From an uncultured archaeon (lineage in GTDB: Archaea > Asgardarchaeota > Thorarchaeia > Thorarchaeales > Thorarchaeaceae), in assembly GCA_964354495.1 (NCBI GenBank), contig CAYHAA010000001.1, positions 1 through 32,000 on the forward strand: a stretch of DNA of 32,000 nt, in the 5' to 3' direction. The notes under the pieces were generated by a model. That model worked only from the letters and a program-made list of their open reading frames with translations, was not told the DNA's origin and ran no database searches. Shown one piece after another: positions 1-15,232 of this stretch. Within the stretch, counting starts at the first letter, position 1; each line of letters begins with the position of its first letter. Position numbers and translations under genes: made by a program.

Positions 1-3000
1 CTCACCAGCACCTCTGCCTTGAGTATTAAAGCCTCAAGTAGATTCGCTCTGAATGAAGCACTGCGCGGGACCTCCGGTTCTATCATCTCAATGTATTTGT
101 CAATGGTCTCCAGTGCCTGTTGTGACATTCCACCCTCTCGAAGCTCTTGTGCCTCTCTTTTCATTCGACCATATTCAACTGCAGCCGAGAAGGGATCTAG
201 TGGTGGCCTTGTGGAGACCTCTTCTACGGCTCTCCACCCTCTCTCCTTGGCAATATTCTTGAGGACACCTGATAGTGACTCTCTCACCTCCTCAGGAGAC
301 TCTATCTCGTACCCCTCCGACCTCGCTATTCGGTCTACGCCTTCTGTCAGTCTCTCAAACGCCTCGTCAGGGGTCGTTTCTTCACTGACCCTGATGGAGC
401 CATAGTCACGCCGCACTGAATCAGGGCTTCTTCTCTCTACACAATACCTCACAAGGTCACCTTCACCATGTAGCTCGACACTATACAGGTTCTCAGGCCT
501 ATATCCCTGACTTCTCAACATCCCCTTGACATGCTCTCTCAGTAAGTTCTGGTCCATGATTTTTCGGGATGAGAAGGTCTTGCTGATAGACGTGATGATG
601 GCATCTGTCATATTCTCTAGACTCGCAGCTCGAAACAGAGGTATGGTGAAGGACTGCCCTCTGTAGGTTGCTCCTGTGGTGTCGGACCTTGCACTCCATG
701 TGATGTGGTCCCTCTGGAATTCAATTGAGACAATCCATCGTTCCTCTCTTTTCAACAGGTAGGAGCCTGGCAGATGAAGTTCTTTGAGAGCCTTGGGCAC
801 AATCTCCCTGTAGGCTTGAACCAGGAAAATGCTCTCTCTAAACTCTCGTGGAAGATGGTCAACCTCAGGGACCTTGAACTCGTGAATCACCCACTTGTCC
901 GCATCATTGTAGACCAGAGCACCAGTCTTCAGGAGGGTGGCTAGGGCAGGACCACTCAGCGCAACGCGCTCAAGGTGTTTCACCCCCTCCGGTAGGCCCT
1001 CATCAGCCTTCAGCATGACTCTCCAGCACACACCATGACGAAAGACTGACTCGCTCAGGATTGCATCAGGCTGCCCCAGTTGGCCCTCAATCCTTTGGAG
1101 ATACTCTGAGACATCTACACCACCTTGTTCATCCATCCGTCGTTTCAATTCATCCTCTGAAACTAGGCAGAGAGGACATGTCCCTCGGTCATGCAGGACA
1201 GAGAGCTCTAGACCGACTCTCTTCTCGATCCCGATGAACTGCTCAGCAGTCGCCGGAAGACTCAGGTCTTCGGTCTTGAAGGGCTCTCTTCTCTCAACCC
1301 ACGGTCTCAGAATGTTAGCATCATCCATGTATTCAATGTCCTTGAACCTATTCCATATCAGCTCATGCTCGCCAATGATCACCTGTTCGCACTGAAAGTC
1401 TGGTCTTCTCAATATCTCAAGCAAATCGATAGTGCGCTTGATCAACAGATGGGCCATCTCTTCGTTCTTCGCAGGTCTGAGAAAAGAGACCCTGAACATC
1501 TGTTCCCTGGTGTCCACCGATACCTGACATCTTGCAGCCTCACACCTTCTGAAGACTGCAGAGAGAGTTCCAAGACCGACTTCCACGATGTCCCCTAGAT
1601 CTGATGGTGGTGCTCTGACCTTATGTGCCATGATTTCTTCGAGGTCAGCATCCTCTCTCAGAGTCATAGACATCAGGAGAGTAACTCCCTCGCTCCTGCG
1701 TGTGTAGTAGTCCAGTTGTCCGATAGGCATCCAGGTATTCTTCGCTTTATCGTGGATCCAGAGCCCCCTCACGTTTCTATATGTAGCAACCAAGATATCC
1801 ACGCTGTCATCCAGATTGACGGTGTCAGATAGTATACCCAGACGTGTCAGATCCGACTCTCCCCAGAAGGGCTTCTCTCGACACAATCCCCTGAGAGCCT
1901 CTACGATTGAATCCTCCTTTTCGGAGGACAGTCGAATAGAGATAGTGTTCATATCATGACTGCCTGGTCTTGCTTGGAATAGCAGTAACAAAGAGGCTGG
2001 TCTTCCCTTCTCCTCCACGAATGCTGCCTTTCCAAAATGAATATCATGGACCTCTTTGCTCTTGTATAGGTTCTGCAGGGCTTCAGCGCGTCTAGCCAGT
2101 CTGTCGATGAGCTGAGGCCGATGAAGGACTGACTCGCCAGTCTGGTGGGGAAGAGGGTACTCTGGCTCAAATCCCAGAGCTATGAGTTGCCAAGGCATAA
2201 GGTACTCCCAGAGTTTTTGAGTGACAGCCCTCGGAAACTCTAATGATTGTGCTGGACGGAGTGCAGCAAGAAGAATGAGGAAGAGCTGATTACCCATGAC
2301 TAGGAGTAGGTCTGGATGTTGAGACATCAGCTGTTTCAGAACCACATCCTGGTCTGGAGAGAGTCCCTGGGGAGCCCGTGTTCGAAAGACCTTTAGATGC
2401 GCCCAGATCCCTTTACTCAGAGAGTGTGTCTCAAGAACCATTCTCACAGCCCTCAGAGGGCTGAATACGTCTATTGAGGGGGCGCGATTGGTAGTGTTTC
2501 TATGCGCAAGCTCACTGAGTGAGTCCAAGAGATTCCTCCATTCACTCTTCTCACAGTGACTCTTTCTGAGTATCTCTATGACACGCCTGATCCCACTGAG
2601 TTCTCGACTGACAATGATAGCATGGTCTCTCTGCCCATACTTCAGAAGCGCGACATGAGGCGGTCGTGTGGTCACCCTTCGAGGTTGTCCATACAGACGG
2701 GTTTCTCTGTACTCTCGTTTCTGGTTTATCTTCCCCAGTGGTTCGATAAGGGTTACCCTCCCATCATGTTCCTTCGTAGTCAGATGCTGATGTGGTGTGA
2801 AGTTCACTCTGGACAAGAAGGAAGGTGGATTTGATGGAGATGTCGGTAGTAGATTGCTAATGACAGTCTCAATTCTCTCTTGATCAGGGGAGTCTGAATT
2901 CTCCTCATAGAATCTCTGGAGGTGCGGAATTAGTTCAAGAATCGACTGCTCATCCTCCTCCTCACAAGCTCTACTCTGCACTCGTCTAGCACTTGGATAT

Positions 3001-5612
3001 GAGGATCTGAGATAGAACGTCTGTCGTCGACTGGTGTTCTCAACCCGCTTACTGTCTGGTCGAAATCTTTCACCCCACAAGTACAATGGAGGAATCAGTA
3101 TAGGAGTGATGTCGATGGCATCGGCTCGCTCAACGACCAGCCACCGCAGGTCATCCTCTATAGGAGCGTATGAACCGTATCTCATAGGAGCAGTTGGCAC
3201 ATTGTAGATGATTTCGTCCACGAGGTTCGCCCAATGACTCTCATTATAGAAGGGAGCGATACTTCGTGTGTCATAACGTTGGGCGGTGTTACTGATTGGA
3301 ACAGGTCTTTCAAACCACAACGCCGTGGAATGCTCAGGGACCTCGTTCAGAAGACGAACCATCAGTTCATCTAGCAGTGATTCTCTGTCCTTTGGGATAG
3401 TGCTTCTCACCCCGTCGATTCCGGTGACCACAATGAAAGGTCTTCTCGCGTTCTTGAGAAGACACCGTATCTCTGCGCAGATCTTACTGAGAGATGTATC
3501 CCCATAAAGATACGATGCCACAGACTCGCTCAAATCGACGAACCTAATTCTTCTTGTGAGGAGGCCCAGTACACTCTCTGGCTGTAGATTAGTCCTGAGA
3601 ACACGTCTTCTTTTCTCAGGATTTCCGTATTCTCCTGCGAGGTCAAACCAGTAGATGTCCCTGTGCTTTCCCCTCGTCCGTTCATGGATGAGTTCAAGTC
3701 CATGCCACTTGGCGGCAATTCGCGCAGCAGACTCTGAGGGGGATCCTCTTCCAGATACGGTGAGGTACAGAATGAACTCTCTATCGTCTTTCCGTTTCTC
3801 AGAAAACTGAAATGGGTCGAAATGCTTGACCTTTTTGATTGGATTGGTTTCTCTGTTTTCAATATCACTGAAGAAAACAAGCCCCAACCGGAGGGTCTTA
3901 TACTCTGGAGAGAGATGGAAATGTTCTCTCTTTGATAGTGCAGCACCTATTGATGTATGATATGCCTTCAAGATCAGCTCTTTGATGTGGTCACGAAGAG
4001 TTTCCCAATTCTCGTTCAGGTCAACAACAAGCACTCCCTTCATGAGGCTCTTGGGCGGGTCAGAGTCATGTGGTGCATATCTCCGGTATTCCTCAAGCAC
4101 GGTCTTCTCATACGCGGCGAGCTGTAAGCGTTCATACTTTGTCGGTCTCGACTCGATGACCTCATTCCATTCAGGATCTTCGGATCTACGCAGTTCCATC
4201 TCATGTTCAATGACTCTACTGCGCCTGTCCTTTGACTTTGTTAATGTTGCATACAGGTCCAGATCGAAAAAGCACGTTGACTTGACCTCGACAAGCATGC
4301 AGGGTTCCCAGATATCCTCGATATATGAGTCATCAACTCGTTGGAGTCTCTTTCTCCGAGAGAGAAGGATATCAAGGCGCCCCCTGCCATTCGCAATAGG
4401 CACCTCGCAGGAAAAGAGGAACTCAGTCTTCTCTGAAACCATCTCATCTCCATGCCTGAAAGTACTCTGAAGGTTGAAGGGTCGAGTTGTAAACTCCGCG
4501 TTGGCGATGAAGTCATGGAACGCAGAGCCTAGTTTCCGACTATGCTCCCGAAGGTCCCTTGCGATGTTTTTTGAGTCATCAGGACCCAGCAAATTGCCTT
4601 CAATGAGTGTTCTCAGTTGTTTGACCTGTTTCTTCCACTCAGGGTTCGTTCTAGTATCACATCTATCTGCAAGGTGAGGAAGAAAGGAGTCAAGGACCAT
4701 TTGACGTGGACCCCGAGAGTTAGCATCAACAAACTCCTTCTCAATAATAGTTGCCTTTGATGCCCCTTTCAGACCTTTATCATTGGAGTTCCGGATAAGC
4801 ATGATCTCTGTATTTTCATCCTTCATCGACTCTGAGATCTCTCCCGTGATTGATTGTGGGCGACCATTCACTCCTCCAAAGGTGGCACGAATCTCTAGGG
4901 TGATCTCTCTGAGTATCTTCGCACTGCCTCGTACAAATCCTGACTCTATCTTCTTCTGTTCGGTGTAGATGTATTCCAAGTGAGGAATGAGTCGTTTGAC
5001 GAGTGCATCAAGGTAAAGTCTTGCCTCTCTCAGGGGGACGGAGTACTTCATACACTGTCGGATAAGCTCTACTCCATGACTGCGAATCATATCGACAAAG
5101 TCCTGTTCTGGAGCCGTGTGTCGTGGAGCAAACTCTGGAATGCACGAGTTTCCAGGATAGACCCATCTCACTTTTCCCTGATCTGTTAGTGTCCTCATTG
5201 GTGATGGAAACGGAAACCGTTCGGCGGCCAAGTTTCTGAGCCGTGCACCATAATAGTCTGCAAGGTTGTTGATGTATTTCCTATCCTCTCTTTTCCTCTT
5301 TCTCTTAGTTTCAGCGTTGCCGTATGGGACTGATGTGTTGAAGATGATCTTGTTGAAACTTCGACGGATGTTGTTTTCGGCTCTCTGAAAGTGGACTGCA
5401 TCAGGTCTTCGAGCTCGCTTGGAACTTGAATAGCTCTCATTTGCCTCTAGATAGATCCTTCTAATCCCCTTGCATCCCTTTCCTCCCTCATAGAGATGTT
5501 TAGTGGCCTTAGTGATTCTGGATTTTGCCAGATATACTGTCGAAGAGAGCCCGAGCTGGATAGATCTGGTGAGAACCTTGCCAGGATGAGAAGGCAATCT
5601 ACTACCTATCAT
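1..5612 (-). CDS. Giant protein (>=1870 aa, runs off the left edge) with an N-terminal-third PD-(D/E)XK RecB/AddB/Cas4-like nuclease domain, a degenerate P-loop-like domain and a long uncharacterised C-terminal region
   Basis: Manual translation from ATG 5612 (MIGSRLPSHPGKVLTRS...) stays open to position 3 (...NLLEALILKAEVLV). It is absent from the ORF track, consistent with having no stop in the window; the + strand ORFs here are Ser-rich antisense shadows. Motifs: GSAFH (H366), CEVP (E403), GRLD (D414), VEVK (E442/K444), QLAAY (Q497-Y501). A TTATATAA box lies about 30 nt upstream. Confidence 0.85.
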   Translation of the reverse strand, partial: MIGSRLPSHPGKVLTRSIQLGLSSTVYLAKSRITKATKHLYEGGKGCKGIRRIYLEANESYSSSKRARRPDAVHFQRAENNIRRSFNKIIFNTSVPYGNAETKRKRKREDRKYINNLADYYGARLRNLAAERFPFPSPMRTLTDQGKVRWVYPGNSCIPEFAPRHTAPEQDFVDMIRSHGVELIRQCMKYSVPLREARLYLDALVKRLIPHLEYIYTEQKKIESGFVRGSAKILREITLEIRATFGGVNGRPQSITGEISESMKDENTEIMLIRNSNDKGLKGASKATIIEKEFVDANSRGPRQMVLDSFLPHLADRCDTRTNPEWKKQVKQLRTLIEGNLLGPDDSKNIARDLREHSRKLGSAFHDFIANAEFTTRPFNLQSTFRHGDEMVSEKTEFLFSCEVPIANGRGRLDILLSRRKRLQRVDDSYIEDIWEPCMLVEVKSTCFFDLDLYATLTKSKDRRSRVIEHEMELRRSEDPEWNEVIESRPTKYERLQLAAYEKTVLEEYRRYAPHDSDPPKSLMKGVLVVDLNENWETLRDHIKELILKAYHTSIGAALSKREHFHLSPEYKTLRLGLVFFSDIENRETNPIKKVKHFDPFQFSEKRKDDREFILYLTVSGRGSPSESAARIAAKWHGLELIHERTRGKHRDIYWFDLAGEYGNPEKRRRVLRTNLQPESVLGLLTRRIRFVDLSESVASYLYGDTSLSKICAEIRCLLKNARRPFIVVTGIDGVRSTIPKDRESLLDELMVRLLNEVPEHSTALWFERPVPISNTAQRYDTRSIAPFYNESHWANLVDEIIYNVPTAPMRYGSYAPIEDDLRWLVVERADAIDITPILIPPLYLWGERFRPDSKRVENTSRRQTFYLRSSYPSARRVQSRACEEEDEQSILELIPHLQRFYEENSDSPDQERIETVISNLLPTSPSNPPSFLSRVNFTPHQHLTTKEHDGRVTLIEPLGKINQKREYRETRLYGQPRRVTTRPPHVALLKYGQRDHAIIVSRELSGIRRVIEILRKSHCEKSEWRNLLDSLSELAHRNTTNRAPSIDVFSPLRAVRMVLETHSLSKGIWAHLKVFRTRAPQGLSPDQDVVLKQLMSQHPDLLLVMGNQLFLILLAALRPAQSLEFPRAVTQKLWEYLMPWQLIALGFEPEYPLPHQTGESVLHRPQLIDRLARRAEALQNLYKSKEVHDIHFGKAAFVEEKGRPASLLLLFQARPGSHDMNTISIRLSSEKEDSIVEALRGLCREKPFWGESDLTRLGILSDTVNLDDSVDILVATYRNVRGLWIHDKAKNTWMPIGQLDYYTRRSEGVTLLMSMTLREDADLEEIMAHKVRAPPSDLGDIVEVGLGTLSAVFRRCEAARCQVSVDTREQMFRVSFLRPAKNEEMAHLLIKRTIDLLEILRRPDFQCEQVIIGEHELIWNRFKDIEYMDDANILRPWVERREPFKTEDLSLPATAEQFIGIEKRVGLELSVLHDRGTCPLCLVSEDELKRRMDEQGGVDVSEYLQRIEGQLGQPDAILSESVFRHGVCWRVMLKADEGLPEGVKHLERVALSGPALATLLKTGALVYNDADKWVIHEFKVPEVDHLPREFRESIFLVQAYREIVPKALKELHLPGSYLLKREERWIVSIEFQRDHITWSARSDTTGATYRGQSFTIPLFRAASLENMTDAIITSISKTFSSRKIMDQNLLREHVKGMLRSQGYRPENLYSVELHGEGDLVRYCVERRSPDSVRRDYGSIRVSEETTPDEAFERLTEGVDRIARSEGYEIESPEEVRESLSGVLKNIAKERGWRAVEEVSTRPPLDPFSAAVEYGRMKREAQELREGGMSQQALETIDKYIEMIEPEVPRSASFRANLLEALILKAEVLV

Positions 5613-5641
5613 TTCTGTCCGGCACTCTATTGTTATGTTAC

Positions 5642-5649
5642 TTATATAA
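5642..5649 (-). promoter_or_regulatory. Archaeal TATA box for the giant ORF (probably a leaderless transcript)
   Basis: TTATATAA 30 nt upstream of ATG 5612 in an AT-rich intergenic region. Confidence 0.55.
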
Positions 5650-5759
5650 TATCCGTAGACTATTATCCATTTTAGACTATGCCAAAGTGGCCAAATAAAA
5701 CCAAGATATGAGGCTAAATGGGGTCAGCAGGGACTAATCTTGTTAAATACTATAAGGAG

Positions 5760-5767
5760 TTTAAATA
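5760..5767 (+). promoter_or_regulatory. Archaeal TATA box for the TnpB-like gene
   Basis: TTTAAATA preceded by a purine-rich tract (AAGGAG), 33 nt before ATG 5801; SD-like GGAG at 5789-5792. Confidence 0.5.
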
Positions 5768-5800
5768 GCATCGTAGGCACTGGTATTTGGAGAAACGACG

Positions 5801-7966
5801 ATGAAACAAGACATCCAGTGCCATTCCTGGAGGCAAGGGCAGAGGTCTACACCACAGCCAATGCAAGAGTCAATGACTGGCAAATACTATAAGGATTCGT
5901 CGCAGACGAAATATCTTGTCGAGTCGTTTATTCTAAACTCCGAAGACAGAGTTGTTTCGAGAAAAGGAGTTGGACGGAGACCACACCCATCCTTCAAAAG
6001 AAGCAGTAGACAGGATTCCATGCTCTCATCCATCCTAAGAGGAACCGGAAAGAAGGTCAAGGACATTGACCTCAGAACTCTCTCCCTTCACTTCGAGAGA
6101 TATATGCAGGCTGTGAATCTTGTCCTCTCAAAGATATACAGTAGTCCCAAGCGAGCAGCACAACTCGGAAAAGAACTATCAGAATACAATGGGAGAGCCT
6201 ATACGCTTCTCAGAAGGCAGAGAGACCTCTGTTATGAACATAATCAAGACATCAAGGATTTGGTGTACGAGAGACTTCACAGGAATGTCCTTGAGCAAGC
6301 TGGAAGGATGCTATTTGCTGACTGGTCGAGAAGAGAGCTGTTCACCTCTGCTCTGAAGGTCCTCGATGCCTCACAAGACGACACACTGACTCTTCTGAGA
6401 AGGAAGCACATTCCTGCATTTCTGATCAGGAAGGCCCGGGACTCGTGTGAGTCTACCAAGAACAATGGTGCAGGATATCATTACGCTATGGGTGTCCTCA
6501 GACAGCTCCGTCTTGCCATGGATAGGCATGTCCTTGACACTCTTGGAATCAAGATTGGATGGAGAGCAAGGCAGAGGAAGAAGGTAGCATCTCTTCTAAA
6601 GAGTGGTTCACCTGAATATCAGGGTGCAATTGATACCATAGAGTTACAGGTCAAGAGTTGGGCTAGGGATGGATATCCCTTCAGCATTCCCCAGCTCAGA
6701 AGTCAGAGTCTTGACTTCTCAGCCAGTACTGAAAACTCCACCGGGCAGGGATACTGGTTCACAATGGATGAAGAACGAGAGAACGAGATACTCCTCTATC
6801 TCAAACTCCCTCCTGGGATAGATGGTATTCAGCATGAAGATTCTCCACACAATGCAAAGACCCTCACCTTGCGCTTCCTTGACTGGCTTCCCAGTGCAAG
6901 CTCTATTGACAGGAGAAATGGCGAATTAGCCAAAGAGAAGAGTGATGTTCATCGCGCTGAGGGACTGACCTTCAGAGCAGCCAAGTTCGAGGACATGCAT
7001 CAGCAGCTTATGAACACCATTCAATTCCAGCACATTACCCACAGACTGGCAAGATTGAAGCAGAAAAAACACTCTGACTGCGAAGAGATCACGAGATTAC
7101 AGGAGAGAGTCAAACAACTGAGGAGTTCAAGGAGGAGTGCGCCCCCTCGGCTTCTTCTCAGAGGTCACAGAGTGATCCTTCAGATTCCCTTTCTCTCACC
7201 TAATGGTTCAGTGAGTTCAGCGGTTCTTGGTGAGAGGGAATACTCAACCAAGGCAGGAGCTGACAGGGGGCTTCGGGCTCCAGTGGCACTCTCTGTGGAG
7301 ACAGAGACCTCCTTCCAGGACCTCCTTATTAGAGTAGACTCCTTGGTAGAGAAGAGAGGAAGAATCAGGAGACATGCATCACAGCTCACCTCAGAGTTAA
7401 CAAGGAAGAAGAACAACTGGGATAGGAAGCGGTCAGGACAGTTATATCCAGCGCCTATACTGAAACGTGACAGACATGTCGACGCGCTGTGGAAAAAAGT
7501 ACGTCGTCTTGACCTCGAGATTGCCCGACAAGTAGCCTCTCAAACTGTGTGGTTCTGTGAGGAACACAGAGTGAAGAGGTTGTTCTTCGAGGACCTGCGG
7601 AGCTTTCAGGCTCGCGCCGGGTCAAAAGACCTGTCGTACAATCTCTCCTCAAATCTCTGGGGGCGGATCATCGACACAGTTCGCTACATGCGCGAGGCCC
7701 TTGGCCATAGCAAATACAGTGTGTGGACGGTAAGCCCGAGATATACATCTCAGACCTGTCATATGTGTGGAGAGAGAGGGTTTCGAGTAGAGGATGAGAT
7801 CTCCACCACTGAGAGAAAGGGAGGGGAGTACTTTTACTGCTCACAGTGTGATACGCACTTCCATGCTGATATCAATGCAGCACGGAACATCATTCATGTT
7901 CAGGACTCCAGTGCCGCTTCTGGAGGGACAAAGGGCATATGTCCAGGTTTGTCTAGGTTACAATAA
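5801..7966 (+). CDS. tnpB: Oversized TnpB/Cas12f-like RNA-guided RuvC endonuclease (721 aa; alternative starts at 5861 and 5873)
   Basis: RuvC-I AGADRGL (D488), bridge-helix region, RuvC-II FFEDL (E597), VSPRYTSQTCHMCG, Zn finger C653/C656/C680/C683, RuvC-III HADINAARNI (D690). N-terminal LHFERYMQAVNLVL resembles the TnpB helical region. Confidence 0.9.
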   Translation: MKQDIQCHSWRQGQRSTPQPMQESMTGKYYKDSSQTKYLVESFILNSEDRVVSRKGVGRRPHPSFKRSSRQDSMLSSILRGTGKKVKDIDLRTLSLHFERYMQAVNLVLSKIYSSPKRAAQLGKELSEYNGRAYTLLRRQRDLCYEHNQDIKDLVYERLHRNVLEQAGRMLFADWSRRELFTSALKVLDASQDDTLTLLRRKHIPAFLIRKARDSCESTKNNGAGYHYAMGVLRQLRLAMDRHVLDTLGIKIGWRARQRKKVASLLKSGSPEYQGAIDTIELQVKSWARDGYPFSIPQLRSQSLDFSASTENSTGQGYWFTMDEERENEILLYLKLPPGIDGIQHEDSPHNAKTLTLRFLDWLPSASSIDRRNGELAKEKSDVHRAEGLTFRAAKFEDMHQQLMNTIQFQHITHRLARLKQKKHSDCEEITRLQERVKQLRSSRRSAPPRLLLRGHRVILQIPFLSPNGSVSSAVLGEREYSTKAGADRGLRAPVALSVETETSFQDLLIRVDSLVEKRGRIRRHASQLTSELTRKKNNWDRKRSGQLYPAPILKRDRHVDALWKKVRRLDLEIARQVASQTVWFCEEHRVKRLFFEDLRSFQARAGSKDLSYNLSSNLWGRIIDTVRYMREALGHSKYSVWTVSPRYTSQTCHMCGERGFRVEDEISTTERKGGEYFYCSQCDTHFHADINAARNIIHVQDSSAASGGTKGICPGLSRLQ
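5814..5833 (+). repeat. Left copy of a hairpin direct repeat bracketing the TnpB-like gene
   Basis: TCCAG-TGCCATTC-CTGGA-GG; 17/20 identical to 7907-7926 with all mismatches in the loop; both copies are followed by AAGGGCA. Confidence 0.75.
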
Positions 7967-8015
7967 ACGGTATCTGAGCCGCAATTTCATCGGTCACTAG
8001 ACAGTCAATGACTCT
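7860..8015 (+). ncRNA. Candidate omegaRNA (reRNA) overlapping the tnpB 3' end; boundaries uncertain
   Basis: TnpB omegaRNAs typically overlap the 3' end of the gene (established knowledge). Visible stems: 7906-7925, GGACA/TGTCC (7926-7930 with 7940-7944) and GACAAA/TTTGTC (7927-7932 with 7948-7953). TCAC at 7994-7997 resembles an IS200/IS605 right-end tetranucleotide. Confidence 0.4.
7906..7926 (+). repeat. Right copy of the hairpin direct repeat, inside the 3' end of the TnpB-like ORF
   Basis: CTCCAG-TGCCGCTT-CTGGAG-G, 6-bp stem with 8-nt loop. Confidence 0.75.
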
Positions 8016-8494
8016 AGGTCAACTGCCTCTCGCTTGATGAGTTCGACAATCTTAGCGATTTCACTTGATAGCACGACCGGAATGTCTTGATTGCCCTGGA
8101 ATGCGTCTGAAGACCAAGTGACTATCGCCTTCACAGACTCAGGAAGTACGCTGACTTCACTCTCAGCATTGCCAACGCACCAGAGCTTTGGTACTTCGCT
8201 CTCCTTCAGTCCCTCAATGATAAGGAAGTCCGCTGTGACTCCAGAGAGCAATTCGTGCAGACTCCTTCTATCATTGTGTGTGACAGCCGAGCTGTGCGGA
8301 CCGAGAATGACCGTGGCAGTCGCGCCTGCTCGTATGTGCCTCCAGGAGTCCTTGCCCTCCGTATCATAGATCTCATGCATGGTGCTCTTTGCTGTCACCA
8401 CGACATGCCCTTGCTTAACCAGTCTCTTAACAATCTGTTCCACTAGTGTGGTCTTTCCTGTTCCAGAATATCCCGACACTGCAAAGGCTCGCAT
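7997..8494 (-). CDS. mobB: Molybdopterin-guanine dinucleotide biosynthesis protein B
   Basis: MRAFAVSGYSGTGKTTLVEQIV Walker A, DTEGKDSWRHIRAGA, DFLIIEGLK. Start moved to ATG 8494 from the track's 8575. Confidence 0.88.
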   Translation of the reverse strand: MRAFAVSGYSGTGKTTLVEQIVKRLVKQGHVVVTAKSTMHEIYDTEGKDSWRHIRAGATATVILGPHSSAVTHNDRRSLHELLSGVTADFLIIEGLKESEVPKLWCVGNAESEVSVLPESVKAIVTWSSDAFQGNQDIPVVLSSEIAKIVELIKREAVDLESLTV

Positions 8495-8627
8495 GGCATC
8501 TCTGAGAGGTGTTGATAGTGCATATGGGCGTTTCGTTCGGAATTGCTTATTGACGACTGTCATCGAAGTGCTCAAAGCAGTTTCCTTAAAACGGAGTGCA
8601 ATTCATCGAGAGGCCAGTGAATCACCC

Positions 8628-12316: not shown

Positions 12317-15232
12317 ATGACCACGAAGAACGACACCACAAGACTGCTGCGAGGTAATCGTCTGTGGTCAATCGGTTATGCTCTCACCTCTCTGAAGAAT
12401 AATAAGATGCGGAACATGGGCATTGCGCTCGTCCTCGCGATTAGTATTGCACTTCCGACCACTGTCTTCACATGGACCAATACTGGTACAAGACTCGCTA
12501 TCTGGGACTACTTCGATAATAATGCTTACCAATTCAGTGTACAGAACGCACCAGGGAATCCAGCCTATACTCGACTCTTTGATGCCCAAGAGTTGATACT
12601 GAGCAGTCCGTTTGCCGAGTACGCCCATATCACTCCGAGTACCGTTGGTATTCTCAGGGCGGATGGGATTACCCCTGACTGGGAGGCGTACTATACAACA
12701 GATACTAACTATGCACAGGGTATCAAAGACGGAAGAGTCATTCTTGTGACGCCGGACGTTCTTGAGGTATGGTCCACGGAGCTTGCCTGGGAAGGTAATT
12801 TCACCCTTAGCCCCGGAGAGATACTGGTCTCTCGCAGATTTATGGAGACCGCTCGGGATGTCACTGATGGTGCCGTCGATATCGAGATTGGATCTGAGAT
12901 TGCTATTGATGTTCTTCGTACCGCTTACGAGCCAACACAGGGCCGCCCATTCGACCCTCTGCTTCTGAATCGTCAGATAGTGCGAAATCTGACAATCGTT
13001 GGAGTCTATGAGGTCGTCCAATCTTCGATAGTGGGCGCTTCATTCCCTGATGTGTATCGCAGGAACTGGGATCCCCTAGGTGTACTGGAGGGCGTCTTGG
13101 GAATCAGTGATTCGATTCTCATGTTGGCTGACGAGATTGGTGATGAATCGGTTGAGATGATCACTTACTATGGCTACTTCTCACCGGTAGGTTTTGTGAG
13201 GGGATCTGCAGATGGTCTCATTGCCGCTGGACCAACCGAGGCAGCCATCAACATGATGGCTCTGAAGACATCAGTAGAAGAGAGTGATGACACTCTCTCC
13301 GTTGTGGGTCTGGATAACATTGAGAATCTTCAGACGCACATCAACATATATGTAGCAAGTCAGATCCTCATTCTCCTTGCTCTACCGATCATGGTCATGA
13401 GCCTAGTGCTGACCATCTTCACATCAGAGACATCGGTCTCACAGAGGAAAGGGGAGATCAGTGCCCTTCGGTCAAAGGGTGCCTCCTTCAACCAGATCTT
13501 CAGTGCATTCATCTGGGAGTCTTTGATTCTTGCTACCACAGGTTTTCTCATCGGGTTAGGGCTCACATTTCTGATGTCACCCCTGATGGGCTCGTCAACT
13601 GGGCTTCTCTCTTTTGATGTGTCCGTTTACAATCTGTTCCTGAATGAACTAGCAATCCCACCACACGCCTTGATTCTGGCAGCAATCATTGCTCTGTTCC
13701 TTCCTGCAACATATCTGTTTCATGTCTCAAGACGAGTTGATGTGACTGAGATTGGTCAACCCACTACTCGACTGACCTATGAGATTCCTGAAACAGTTCA
13801 CTTCTCATACTATGCTGTTGGACTGGGTGTGGTGCTCGTCATACTCCTTGTGATGCCGATTCTGATCAATCCGACAGGTCAGACTGCCATCTTTGAGGTC
13901 CTGATATCCACGCTACTCCTGTTTGCAGCAGCATACTTGGGTTCGAGGGCGATGAGACTGGTCACAGCAGATGCATCAGAGAGAGTGACTCGAATCATGG
14001 GTGAGAAGAGGCTCTATCTCACTCAGAGCCTCCGCAGACGCAAGGGGCAGTTCATCCCGCTCCTTGTGATACTGACCCTGACCCTGACAACAACCACGAT
14101 GATGCTGATTCAGACTGCAAGCTTCGAAGACACGCTCGCGAACGAGGCAGAGTATGCACTAGGCTCAACGTTGAGAATCGAGACATCCCATCACTCTCTC
14201 TATTGGCTTAGTGGTCTTCCTGGATACTCAGAGGCCGATGGTGGGACACCTGTGATTGAGGCTCTATCTCATGTTGGTGACGAAGGGTTCTATCTCGAAG
14301 GCATTGATGCGCGATACTACAGGGACATCGCGAATTTCAAGCCCACGAGTTTCGTTGGGAGCAGTCCTGAAGTCATTCTTACTGCCCTTGACAACACACA
14401 CAATGGCATCATCATAAGTGAGTATTATGCGACAGCCTGGAATCTCACGGCAGGCGCCACTCTGTCAATCGATGTGACAACAATCACGAGTCACGAAATT
14501 GTCGACTTTCAAGTGGTAGGAATGATGATTAGTGCTCCTGGATTCGGAATGGCATCAACTAGGGATCTTGAAGGCATGCCCTTTGGGGCATTCTTTGGGT
14601 TCCAGCCTGGCCTTGGTGGATTTGCCTTGGTCAATCTTCAAGATCTTGCCCATGAGATCGGTGCAACGACTGCTGAGACCTTCCTCGTGGGAGCGGCCTC
14701 ACTCGATGATGTGGCAGAATTGACTGCATACCTTGAGACCATGACGTACACCACGGTCTACATAGCAGGAACGATTGAGTTTGGTCCTGACTCTGTCACA
14801 GGGCTCTTCGTGGCTGGTCTGGAAGGACTGACAATGATCAGCTTCATCATGTGCGCTGCTATGGGCATCTCATCAATAGCACTGTTCTTGGGTTCTGCCG
14901 TGCTAGAGCGCGAGCCTGAGTATGCTCTCTTTCGTGCTATTGGTGGTACAAAACGCCAGATCATCAGCCTTGTGTTCAGCGAATTCGCAGGGAGTGTTCT
15001 TGCGGCAGTCCTGATTAGTCTTGGTCTGGGTGTCCTATTTGGTTACACGCAGACACTACTCACCTTTGGGATATCTTCAGTATGGCCTATTCTTCCAAAG
15101 GCGTTAACATATCCACTCACTGTAATGCTATTCACAATTGCATTGGAGTGCATAGTGATGATAGCGGCGTGCTATTACCCAGCTCGCAGAGCAGCGAACA
15201 CAAATCCTGCAGAAGTATTGAGAAATATGTGA
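12317..15232 (+). CDS. ABC transporter permease, FtsX/MacB family (paralogue of the upstream permease)
   Basis: QRKGEISALRSKGAS, EREPEYALFRAIGGTKRQI, EYALGSTLRI, C-terminal PARRAANTNPAEVLRNM. Confidence 0.9.
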   Translation: MTTKNDTTRLLRGNRLWSIGYALTSLKNNKMRNMGIALVLAISIALPTTVFTWTNTGTRLAIWDYFDNNAYQFSVQNAPGNPAYTRLFDAQELILSSPFAEYAHITPSTVGILRADGITPDWEAYYTTDTNYAQGIKDGRVILVTPDVLEVWSTELAWEGNFTLSPGEILVSRRFMETARDVTDGAVDIEIGSEIAIDVLRTAYEPTQGRPFDPLLLNRQIVRNLTIVGVYEVVQSSIVGASFPDVYRRNWDPLGVLEGVLGISDSILMLADEIGDESVEMITYYGYFSPVGFVRGSADGLIAAGPTEAAINMMALKTSVEESDDTLSVVGLDNIENLQTHINIYVASQILILLALPIMVMSLVLTIFTSETSVSQRKGEISALRSKGASFNQIFSAFIWESLILATTGFLIGLGLTFLMSPLMGSSTGLLSFDVSVYNLFLNELAIPPHALILAAIIALFLPATYLFHVSRRVDVTEIGQPTTRLTYEIPETVHFSYYAVGLGVVLVILLVMPILINPTGQTAIFEVLISTLLLFAAAYLGSRAMRLVTADASERVTRIMGEKRLYLTQSLRRRKGQFIPLLVILTLTLTTTTMMLIQTASFEDTLANEAEYALGSTLRIETSHHSLYWLSGLPGYSEADGGTPVIEALSHVGDEGFYLEGIDARYYRDIANFKPTSFVGSSPEVILTALDNTHNGIIISEYYATAWNLTAGATLSIDVTTITSHEIVDFQVVGMMISAPGFGMASTRDLEGMPFGAFFGFQPGLGGFALVNLQDLAHEIGATTAETFLVGAASLDDVAELTAYLETMTYTTVYIAGTIEFGPDSVTGLFVAGLEGLTMISFIMCAAMGISSIALFLGSAVLEREPEYALFRAIGGTKRQIISLVFSEFAGSVLAAVLISLGLGVLFGYTQTLLTFGISSVWPILPKALTYPLTVMLFTIALECIVMIAACYYPARRAANTNPAEVLRNM

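Follow-up and report, generated by a model that had tools for sequence, protein, structure and literature searches.

Why would an Asgard archaeon carry a TnpB-like nuclease gene of Cas12 size, with an intact catalytic site and neither a tnpA gene nor a CRISPR array next to it? This question is raised by a 721-amino-acid (aa) open reading frame in a 32-kb stretch of DNA from an uncultured member of the Thorarchaeaceae (GenBank assembly GCA_964354495.1, contig CAYHAA010000001.1, positions 1 to 32,000), which is called the window here. A preliminary description of this DNA took the gene for an expanded TnpB-type nuclease, possibly domesticated. We found that the nuclease gene belongs to a mobile element of two genes, the other being a giant gene that is transcribed divergently from it. 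With moderate confidence, we favour the reading that the element couples an enlarged TnpB/Cas12f-fold nuclease and a giant integrase to an omega-RNA-like scaffold at its 3′ end, a guide provided by the host flank and a WGG target (W being A or T).

Considering the nuclease itself, matches to known profiles were confined to the C-terminal third (~220 aa) of the protein. The only Pfam match was PF07282 (Cas12f1-like TNB; aa 620-697, E 1.3e-14), which passed the cut-off; the NCBIfam profile guided_TnpB covered aa 483-698 with 70.5 bits and thus remained below its cut-off of 100, and the best PADLOC profiles were Cas12u3 and Cas12f (E 4e-14 to 5e-13). Solved Cas12f and TnpB chains gave marginal sequence matches only. 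The RuvC motifs of the guided_TnpB and Cas12f profiles align with D488, E597 and D690, and in an alignment of 38 sequences of the nuclease family these three residues were invariant, as were C653, C656, C680 and C683, which together with the PF07282 match reveal a zinc-ribbon TNB domain inside RuvC. The catalytic triad and the four-cysteine zinc finger that the preliminary description had read from the sequence are therefore confirmed down to the residue numbers, and its argument that an intact triad speaks against a TldR-like dead repressor holds as well: a regulator of this type is ruled out by the invariant triad and by neighbouring genes that differ from locus to locus. More than 200 full-length homologues share 53-81% identity with the protein, and those with a named source come nearly all from metagenome-assembled genomes of Thorarchaeota. 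Outside the family, the protein is closest in sequence to archaeal TnpB-like proteins (Heimdallarchaeota, Methanosarcinales, Halorubrum), with which it shares only the RuvC-TNB part.

For placement among TnpB, Cas12 and Fanzor proteins, we used profile scores and structure ranks. An AlphaFold2 model built from the 38-sequence family alignment (predicted local distance difference test, pLDDT, 76.7; predicted template modelling score, pTM, 0.68) displays the bilobed WED-REC-RuvC fold. When this model was searched against the PDB with Foldseek, Cas12f came out on top (8j12_A, E 2.7e-11), and TnpB, other Cas12 subtypes and Fanzor2 ranked lower. VIA-align superposed AsCas12f (8dzj_A) on aa 36-701 of the nuclease with a Z score of 17.6 (378 of 416 residues aligned, root mean square deviation (rmsd) 4.0), followed by the TnpB proteins of ISFba1 (8iaz_A; Z 14.3, 369/384 residues) and ISDra2 (8h1j_A; Z 13.4, 353/362 residues), and by Fanzor2 (9b0l_P) with a Z score of 13.8. 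Since whole known chains are covered by aa 36-701, the model predicts a complete TnpB/Cas12f core to which ~300 aa of inserts and disordered tails have been added. This agrees with the expanded lineage proposed in the preliminary description, and the two inserts that it had placed at about aa 180-290 and aa 395-445 correspond to an enlarged helical REC region and a helical hairpin between WED strands in the model (Table 1). The automatic gene call, a 648-aa protein starting at M74, is too short because it cuts off the conserved first WED strand, and the ATG at position 5801 would fit as the start codon, given a TATA-like box ~35 nt upstream. On the basis of its residues and predicted fold, the 721-aa protein is a real, catalytically intact nuclease of the TnpB/Cas12f type, for which cleavage activity is predicted.

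The gene is not located in an AT-rich intergenic gap, as had been proposed: the GC content is 0.45-0.50, and 188 nt separate it from the giant gene on one side and 30 nt from mobB on the other. An array scan detected no tandem array or repeats in the 32-kb window, and the Y1 transposase TnpA (PF01797) was not found in the 97.7%-complete genome, although positive controls were detected; the reported lack of tnpA and of a CRISPR array thus stands. No classical transposase family was found nearby, but the further claim that a transposase is lacking is doubtful in view of the giant gene, which is conserved beside the nuclease gene in every subfamily.

The full length of the giant protein, which is cut by the contig start in the window, is known from locus P0287/L127. 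Head-to-head pairs with a spacing of 187-189 nt were also found on contigs L010 and L011, in a paralogue on contig C3 of the same genome and in copies from other species, and the TATA-like boxes and the CTAATCTTGTTAAATA motif of the spacer are kept in the orthologues as well as in the paralogue. Giant proteins of the window and of the L010/L011 orthologues are 58% identical, and the C3 paralogue shares 46% identity in the TnpB-like protein and 49% in the giant protein. Altogether, the genome contains at least 7 giant/TnpB-like pairs belonging to several subfamilies. In the more distant pairs, on C44, C31, C6, C27 and C17, TnpB-like proteins of 550-625 aa with a TNB domain (E about 1e-12) are accompanied by giant proteins of 1,630-1,902 aa that are only 23-27% identical to the window type. 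The giant gene, coding for 1,600-1,920 aa, adjoins the TnpB-like gene in every subfamily, and maintenance of the pairing at such low identity argues for a functional dependence between the two proteins.

Several lines of evidence show that the pair is mobile. In its own genome (G000), we detected 10 protein-level matches to the 721-aa nuclease, including one more intact copy, one interrupted by a TGA codon, one truncated at the end of a contig, fragments of the C-terminal part and a weak match that belongs to a more distant subfamily. The window type of nuclease is carried by 10 of 24 other congeneric species, with 1-15 matches each, many of them truncated or containing stop codons; the remaining 14 lack it, among them species whose genomes are 93-95% complete, and none of 16 genomes outside the genus gave a match at E <= 1e-20. 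The giant-protein profile matched 17 of 26 genomes of the taxonomic family (10 genera, 2-7 matches each) and a single one of 124 genomes from outside the family. Judged by these matches, the element appears to be specific to one family of Thorarchaeia. As to whether the locus is fixed or sporadic, a point that the preliminary description had left to synteny, it is sporadic: the genes next to the copies differ (mobB, AstE/AspA, metallophosphatase, Schlafen-like, fibrillarin/DUF61, KaiC-like and EF-2), and relatives have empty sites. The copy at L047, an element of 8,265 bp, sits between a DUF61 and a PDDEXK_19 gene, and the corresponding flanks are contiguous in G007, G015 and G024 at 86-93% identity; its ends carry an 11-12-bp direct repeat, CTATTAGATAT(C), which is present as a single copy at the empty sites. 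For the window copy, the empty site in G012, a genome without a TnpB-like gene of the window type, reads CCTTAGG-GGTATCTGAGCC-GCACC... with a flank that is 90% identical. The right junction of the occupied site in G000 reads ...ACAATAAACG-GTATCTGAGCC at 7960-7980. The left-hand duplication was not found within 142 nt of L127 and is located on contig C25 instead, where CCTTAGG-GGTATCTGAGCC is followed by unrelated DNA (duplicate at G000:C25:16292-16303); comparison of C25 with C1 yields a duplication of 11-12 bp. Three further full-length copies show repeats of 8-10 bp at matching places, which are statistically weaker, being reached by 7-10 of 200 shuffles where controlled. Direct repeats of 8-12 bp are thus present at 5 loci in total, two of the five being backed by empty sites, and no terminal inverted repeats were seen in full-length copies.

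Other features of individual copies are recorded here in their own right. Beyond the left junction of the window copy, the 7.4 kb at G000:C25:16304-23732 (L139) contain ABC-2 transporter, leucine-rich repeat and tetratricopeptide repeat (TPR) genes, and the first 2.3 kb of this DNA have no match in G012, G006 or G017; it may be either extra DNA or cargo (giving an insert of at least 15.6 kb), the product of a later rearrangement or an assembly problem. The copy at L025 (G015:C49) is flanked by an imperfect direct repeat of ~30 nt with 2 mismatches (5590-5625 and 13840-13875), which is much longer than the usual 11-12 bp and is surrounded by weaker similarity on both sides. Comparison of window positions 7997-8575 (- strand) with L025 4160-4636 places the G000 element directly downstream of mobB, and the G015 copy one gene further from mobB and in the opposite orientation, as independent insertions in the same neighbourhood. 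L012 (G000:C3, ~6950-7010) and L029 (G014:C69) belong to different subfamilies, and each of these two copies lies ~55 nt from a putative tRNA gene; these tRNA genes look alike and have similar flanks, and could represent a shared or re-used insertion site. Finally, the copy at G000:C7:27376-28487 is internally deleted, so that part of the middle of the giant gene is joined to a C-terminal piece of the TnpB-like gene; it still has the right-end element, at C7:28490-28545.

The right end of the element is defined by conserved DNA that runs to 3 nt past the nuclease stop codon. Over ~27 copies, with protein identities as low as 59%, the last 20 codons show more DNA conservation than the protein requires, and in the C3 paralogue this conservation even runs past an earlier stop codon. 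Similarity breaks off sharply after ...ACAATNAACG (AACG); the next bases are mostly GT, and no shared motif was found downstream. Using RNAalifold and single-sequence folding, we obtained a two-hairpin fold of the last ~62 nt for 27 copies (mean folding z -2.4 against mononucleotide shuffles), in which hairpin 1 follows the pattern (Y)CCA(G/C)-N8-(C/G)TGG(R) and the longer hairpin 2 is closed by GGAC/GTCC. In our alignment A6, 94.8% of the cells are paired, when compared to 81.4% in column shuffles (0/500 reach the observed value) and at most 50% in slid controls, and 34 cells are changed on both sides against a shuffled mean of 10; with the inner helix included (alignment A8), 85.9% are paired against 76.7% in shuffles (0/500) and at most 54% in slid controls, and 44 cells against a shuffled mean of 18 are changed on both sides, the sequences being related and the covariation accordingly counting as few independent events. 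Within hairpin 1 (A6), one pair is CG in 13 and UA in 12 cases and another is GC in 16, CG in 8 and GU in 1, and these compensatory changes alter codons, from Ser/Pro to Thr/Gly. A covariance model of 62 right-end positions, designated R1, scores 65.3 bits at the right end in the window. It detected 29 copies in G000, 33 in G015, 24 in G007 and 6 in G012, but none in G001 and G013. R1 copies far outnumber nuclease genes, and the structured right end corresponds to no Rfam family. A weak second R1 match near the start of the nuclease gene (Table 1) contains the hairpin TCCAG-N7-CTGGA, which resembles hairpin 1, is kept in orthologues and appears with a compensating CCCGG/CCGGG in the C3 paralogue. 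This match probably explains the conserved N-terminal peptide M.QD.QC.SW.Q, and a role in autoregulation or processing would be speculative.

About 19 of the 29 R1 copies in G000 are solo units of ~175 nt without coding sequence, amplified copies of the right end that bear a promoter of their own. When we aligned 14 of these units, we found no coding similarity to the nuclease, a TATA box, TTATATAG, ~70 nt upstream of hairpin 1, and a further hairpin, CTGTGAGG...CCTCACGG, which brings each unit to three hairpins. Their left part holds TTGGACAnAGTTGGACA, mirroring TGTCCAAGTTTGTCCAA of the right end, and they end in ACAATGAACG, after which every 3′ flank is unique. All 14 units are preceded by WGG (AGG 11, TGG 3). 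For two of them the orthologous sites in G012 are empty and place the unit exactly between ...AGG and the flank, with no target duplication beyond an ambiguity of 2-3 nt. At 5 sites of full-length copies, an AGG likewise precedes the duplicated target at a distance of 0-2 nt. An occupied junction consists of ACG and the flank, an empty site of AGG and the flank.

As for the giant protein, no Pfam, NCBIfam or PADLOC family matched it, and its full-length profile produced chance hits only against the PDB. A feature search of the ESM Atlas gave no usable match for the whole protein and sub-threshold TPR-like leads only for aa 1180-1921. The family alignment contains an invariant E398...D409...K439 (~aa 398-439), which, at the level of the motif, would be typical of PD-(D/E)xK nucleases. 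An AlphaFold2 model spanning aa 1-1190 (pLDDT 78.4) includes a RecA/KaiC/RAD51-type ATPase fold at aa 601-889 (KaiC 4o0m_C: Z 12.3, 203 residues aligned, rmsd 3.7), and this domain filled the structure-search matches, leaving the other domains barely covered. The P-loop position reads SG(K/R)GSP and varies within the family; since it is not invariant, ATPase activity is doubtful. The helical N-terminal domain carries invariant E74, H160, D166 and D169 and is a candidate for a Cas1-like domain. Pfam Cas1 matched neither the giant protein nor the 97.7%-complete genome, a search of the PDB with the N-terminal profile found no Cas1, and hhalign of the giant protein against 30 Asgard Cas1 sequences returned probabilities of 0.15% (whole protein) and 0.35% (aa 1-285). 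The resulting alignment sets E74/H160/D166/D169 on the catalytic E/H/D/D of Cas1 and N110/L112/G117 on its N..L....G motif, all of these residues being invariant or at least 90% conserved in the family; at this non-significant score, the likeness to Cas1 is a lead only. We also considered ~1,350-aa proteins with a Cas1 domain from another Asgard family (L092-L094: G066:C5:121343-122176, G066:C4:342074-342907 and G083:C9:5285-6127), which match Pfam Cas1 weakly (E 1e-6 to 3e-10) and are encoded beside two ~270-aa genes; these proteins, which show no relationship to the giant protein and lie next to no TnpB gene, were rejected.

How might these components act together? In the mechanism that we propose, which is modelled on what is established for the TnpB of ISDra2 and its relatives, the right end is transcribed, either within the mRNA or from the promoters of the solo units, and its structure would act as RNA, forming an omega-RNA-like scaffold. 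The transcript would continue into the adjoining host flank, which would serve as the guide, and GTATCTGAGCC is predicted to represent the first bases of this guide in the window copy. WGG would function as the target-adjacent motif (TAM) 5′ of the target: as the insertion lies right after WGG, the nuclease-RNA complex would recognise and cut the empty allele and spare the occupied one, in which ACG is found instead. As for canonical TnpB, cutting of empty alleles would then drive retention or copying of the element through recombination. The giant protein would be the integrase or mobilisation machine, a transposase in function, that integrates the element, and staggered joining by this protein is the proposed cause of the 11-12-bp duplication. 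More tentatively, and in our view with less than even chances, the solo units (~20-30 per genome) may be trans-acting guide-RNA genes that are programmed by their flanks against WGG sites; they would constitute a dispersed repertoire between single-guide TnpB and array-based Cas12, beside a giant Cas1-like integrase that makes 11-12-bp duplications.

Several observations weigh against the proposed mechanism. Conservation is poor at the left ends of full-length copies, which lie anywhere from 16 to 312 nt beyond the stop codon of the giant gene, and in the window copy, genes of ordinary appearance extend over at least 7.4 kb beyond the left junction. For full-length copies, the AGG rule derives from 5 sites with 0-2 nt of slack. 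Full-length copies duplicate 8-12 bp and the two solo units duplicate nothing, so that one mechanism does not obviously fit both, and the Cas1 homology of the giant protein is statistically non-significant. Moreover, the right-end hairpins could act only as DNA. Of the alternatives this one survives best, and we nevertheless regard it as unlikely. According to it, hairpins and tail are sites of integrase binding or cleavage, like the subterminal hairpins of IS200/IS605 elements, solo units are ordinary miniature inverted-repeat transposable elements (MITEs), and the TnpB-like protein obtains its RNA from a different source or does something else. The solo left end indeed holds an inverted version of the TGTCCAA-type repeat of the right end, which is a classic transposon-end layout, and the solo units are mobile, as seen from two empty sites. 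However, a TATA box at a fixed upstream distance in every solo unit would be needless for a pure DNA signal, and the compensatory changes hold the stems at a cost in amino acids. To our knowledge, every TnpB system studied has a guide RNA that overlaps the 3′ end of the nuclease gene, which also argues against a role as DNA only.

Less probable still is that the pair forms a defence or conflict system, in which a giant nuclease-ATPase effector and a guided nuclease cooperate and the solo units are dispersed anti-invader guides, so that the pair would function like a Cas12 without CRISPR. PD-(D/E)xK and RecA-like modules are frequent in defence proteins, the distribution is patchy and lineage-specific, and the guide-like units are numerous, carry promoters and each have a unique 3′ flank. 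On the other hand, PADLOC finds nothing in the giant protein, the supposed guides are adjoining host DNA that is also there at the empty sites of relatives, and at least 7 copies per genome, decayed ones among them, as well as target duplications fit a selfish element. Lastly, a domesticated, host-fixed enlarged TnpB with a cellular function, as entertained in the preliminary description, would account for the intact catalytic site and for the absence of a classical transposase family and of a CRISPR array nearby, but is very improbable and already contradicted by its absence from 14 of 24 congeners, including several with genomes that are 93-95% complete, by a variable copy number with pseudogenes, by neighbours that change from locus to locus and by empty sites with single target copies in close relatives.

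Table 1. Features of the element in the window, regions of the predicted nuclease structure and examples of solo units.
Feature	Position	Strand	Remarks
TnpB/Cas12f-fold nuclease gene	5801..7966	+	721 aa, uninterrupted frame, translation table 11
RuvC codons	D488 7262-7264, E597 7589-7591, D690 7868-7870	+	within the nuclease gene
Zinc-finger Cys codon starts	7757, 7766, 7838, 7847	+	within the nuclease gene
Weak second R1 match	5813..5880	+	cmsearch 23.4 bits, E 1.4e-4; just past the start codon
Right end / candidate 3′ part of omega-RNA scaffold	7906..7969	+	overlaps last 20 codons and stop codon
Right-end hairpin 1	7906-7925	+	
Right-end hairpin 2	7926-7954	+	
Right-end single-stranded tail	7955-7969	+	ends in ACAATAAACG; 15-16 nt across copies
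Right-hand target-site duplication, GTATCTGAGCC	7970..7980	+	12 bp if G7969 is counted; single in G012
Divergent promoter spacer	5613..5800	.	188 nt; TATA-like box on each side; invariant CTAATCTTGTTAAATA at ~5733-5748
Giant partner gene	3..5612	-	covers codons 1-1,870 of a 1,921-aa protein; rest cut by contig start
First WED strand	nuclease aa 38-44		AlphaFold2 model; conserved
Enlarged helical REC region	nuclease aa 70-290		AlphaFold2 model
Helical hairpin between WED strands, ~80 aa	nuclease aa 363-442		AlphaFold2 model
Disordered tails	nuclease aa 1-37, 53-83, 702-721		AlphaFold2 model
Solo units in G000, examples	C1:289912-289977, C3:18836-18900, C3:40958-41022, C4:57848-57913, C12:18259-18324, C8:17012-17077		loci L140-L158

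If the mobile element with its proposed guide and integrase is confirmed, an archaeal, Cas12-sized TnpB with a G-rich TAM would join the RNA-guided nucleases, and a TnpB would be coupled to a target-duplicating integrase of a type other than IS200/IS605. Such a coupling bears on the repeated moves of TnpB between transposon types on the way towards Cas12 and Fanzor.

Comparison with known systems places the element next to several of them. With the TnpB proteins of IS200/IS605 elements (ISDra2, 8h1j) the nuclease has in common the RuvC-TNB core and the WED-REC fold, and in both a structured element extends across the 3′ end of the gene up to the boundary of the transposable element. Further resemblances are the insertion of the two solo units checked, directly 3′ of a short motif and without duplication, and the existence of MITE-like derivatives. 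In contrast, the window nuclease is almost twice as large, full-length copies produce duplications of 8-12 bp and the giant gene takes the place of tnpA. Because Y1 TnpA is lacking and full-length copies duplicate their target, this is not an IS200/IS605 element. Cas12f (type V-F; AsCas12f, 8dzj and 8j12) provides the best whole-chain structural match, but in sequence the two resemble each other only over the C-terminal ~220 aa, and with no array in the 32-kb window and no Pfam Cas1 in the genome, the protein is not a CRISPR effector. Fanzor proteins (Fanzor2, 9b0l) are likewise enlarged TnpB-fold nucleases on transposons whose transposases duplicate the target, whereas the window nuclease is archaeal and shows no specific sequence affinity to them. 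Aloposons (PMC8813620), which consist of tandem genes for 3,000-6,000-aa proteins and have no TnpB, were ruled out.

The closest counterparts are the Asgard TnpB proteins associated with aCas1, which Altae-Tran et al. 2023 (PMC10691335) divide into two groups, Cas1H-Asgard-1 and -2. There, aCas1 is proposed to be the transposase, the loci being flanked by repeats, and a variable region downstream of tnpB is described between a conserved T and a conserved GTTCACTCA. The host is again an Asgard archaeon, a TnpB-family gene lies beside a large gene for a proposed transposase, the loci are repeat-flanked, and the window subfamily has the conserved T at the start of the downstream variable region. 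In this genome and in its relatives, the genes for ~557-aa TnpB-like proteins that are paired with homologues of the window's giant protein (sister pairs C6, C27 and C17 in the same genome) have the published GTTCACTCA without mismatch at 96-106 nt beyond the stop codon, and TnpB-like types of 578-623 aa carry it, exactly or with one mismatch, 18-36 nt before the stop codon. In contrast, no exact GTTCACTCA was found near 11 right ends of the 715-721-aa subfamily, whose DNA conservation ends 3 nt beyond the stop codon, and the homology of the window's partner protein to Cas1 is not significant. The preliminary description had held that nesting in an already described clade would speak against its reading. 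Given the aCas1-TnpB motif in the sister modules, the lineage has probably been catalogued, whereas the 715-721-aa subfamily stands apart in lacking the motif. The aCas1-TnpB elements of Asgard archaea have so far been a bioinformatic prediction only, and the accessible text of PMC10691335 makes no mention of exact ends, an 11-12-bp duplication, a WGG site or solo promoter-bearing units. Judged by the accessible literature, the exact ends of the element, its target duplication and its WGG site appear to be new, as do the covarying candidate scaffold, the dispersed promoter-bearing mini-units and the partial domain map of the giant protein. The locus thereby supplies what bench tests need: exact ends, a candidate scaffold, a predicted TAM (WGG) and guide position, natural mini-versions of the candidate RNA gene with their own promoters, and a domain map of the giant protein. 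Since GTTCACTCA is present in the sister pairs, the superfamily of pairs is very probably of the published aCas1-TnpB kind, and its absence from the window subfamily lowers the case for membership in the described group, not in the wider kind. Collectively, our comparison of sequences suggests that the window element is probably a member, and possibly a separate subfamily, of this predicted, uncharacterised kind of aCas1-TnpB transposon.

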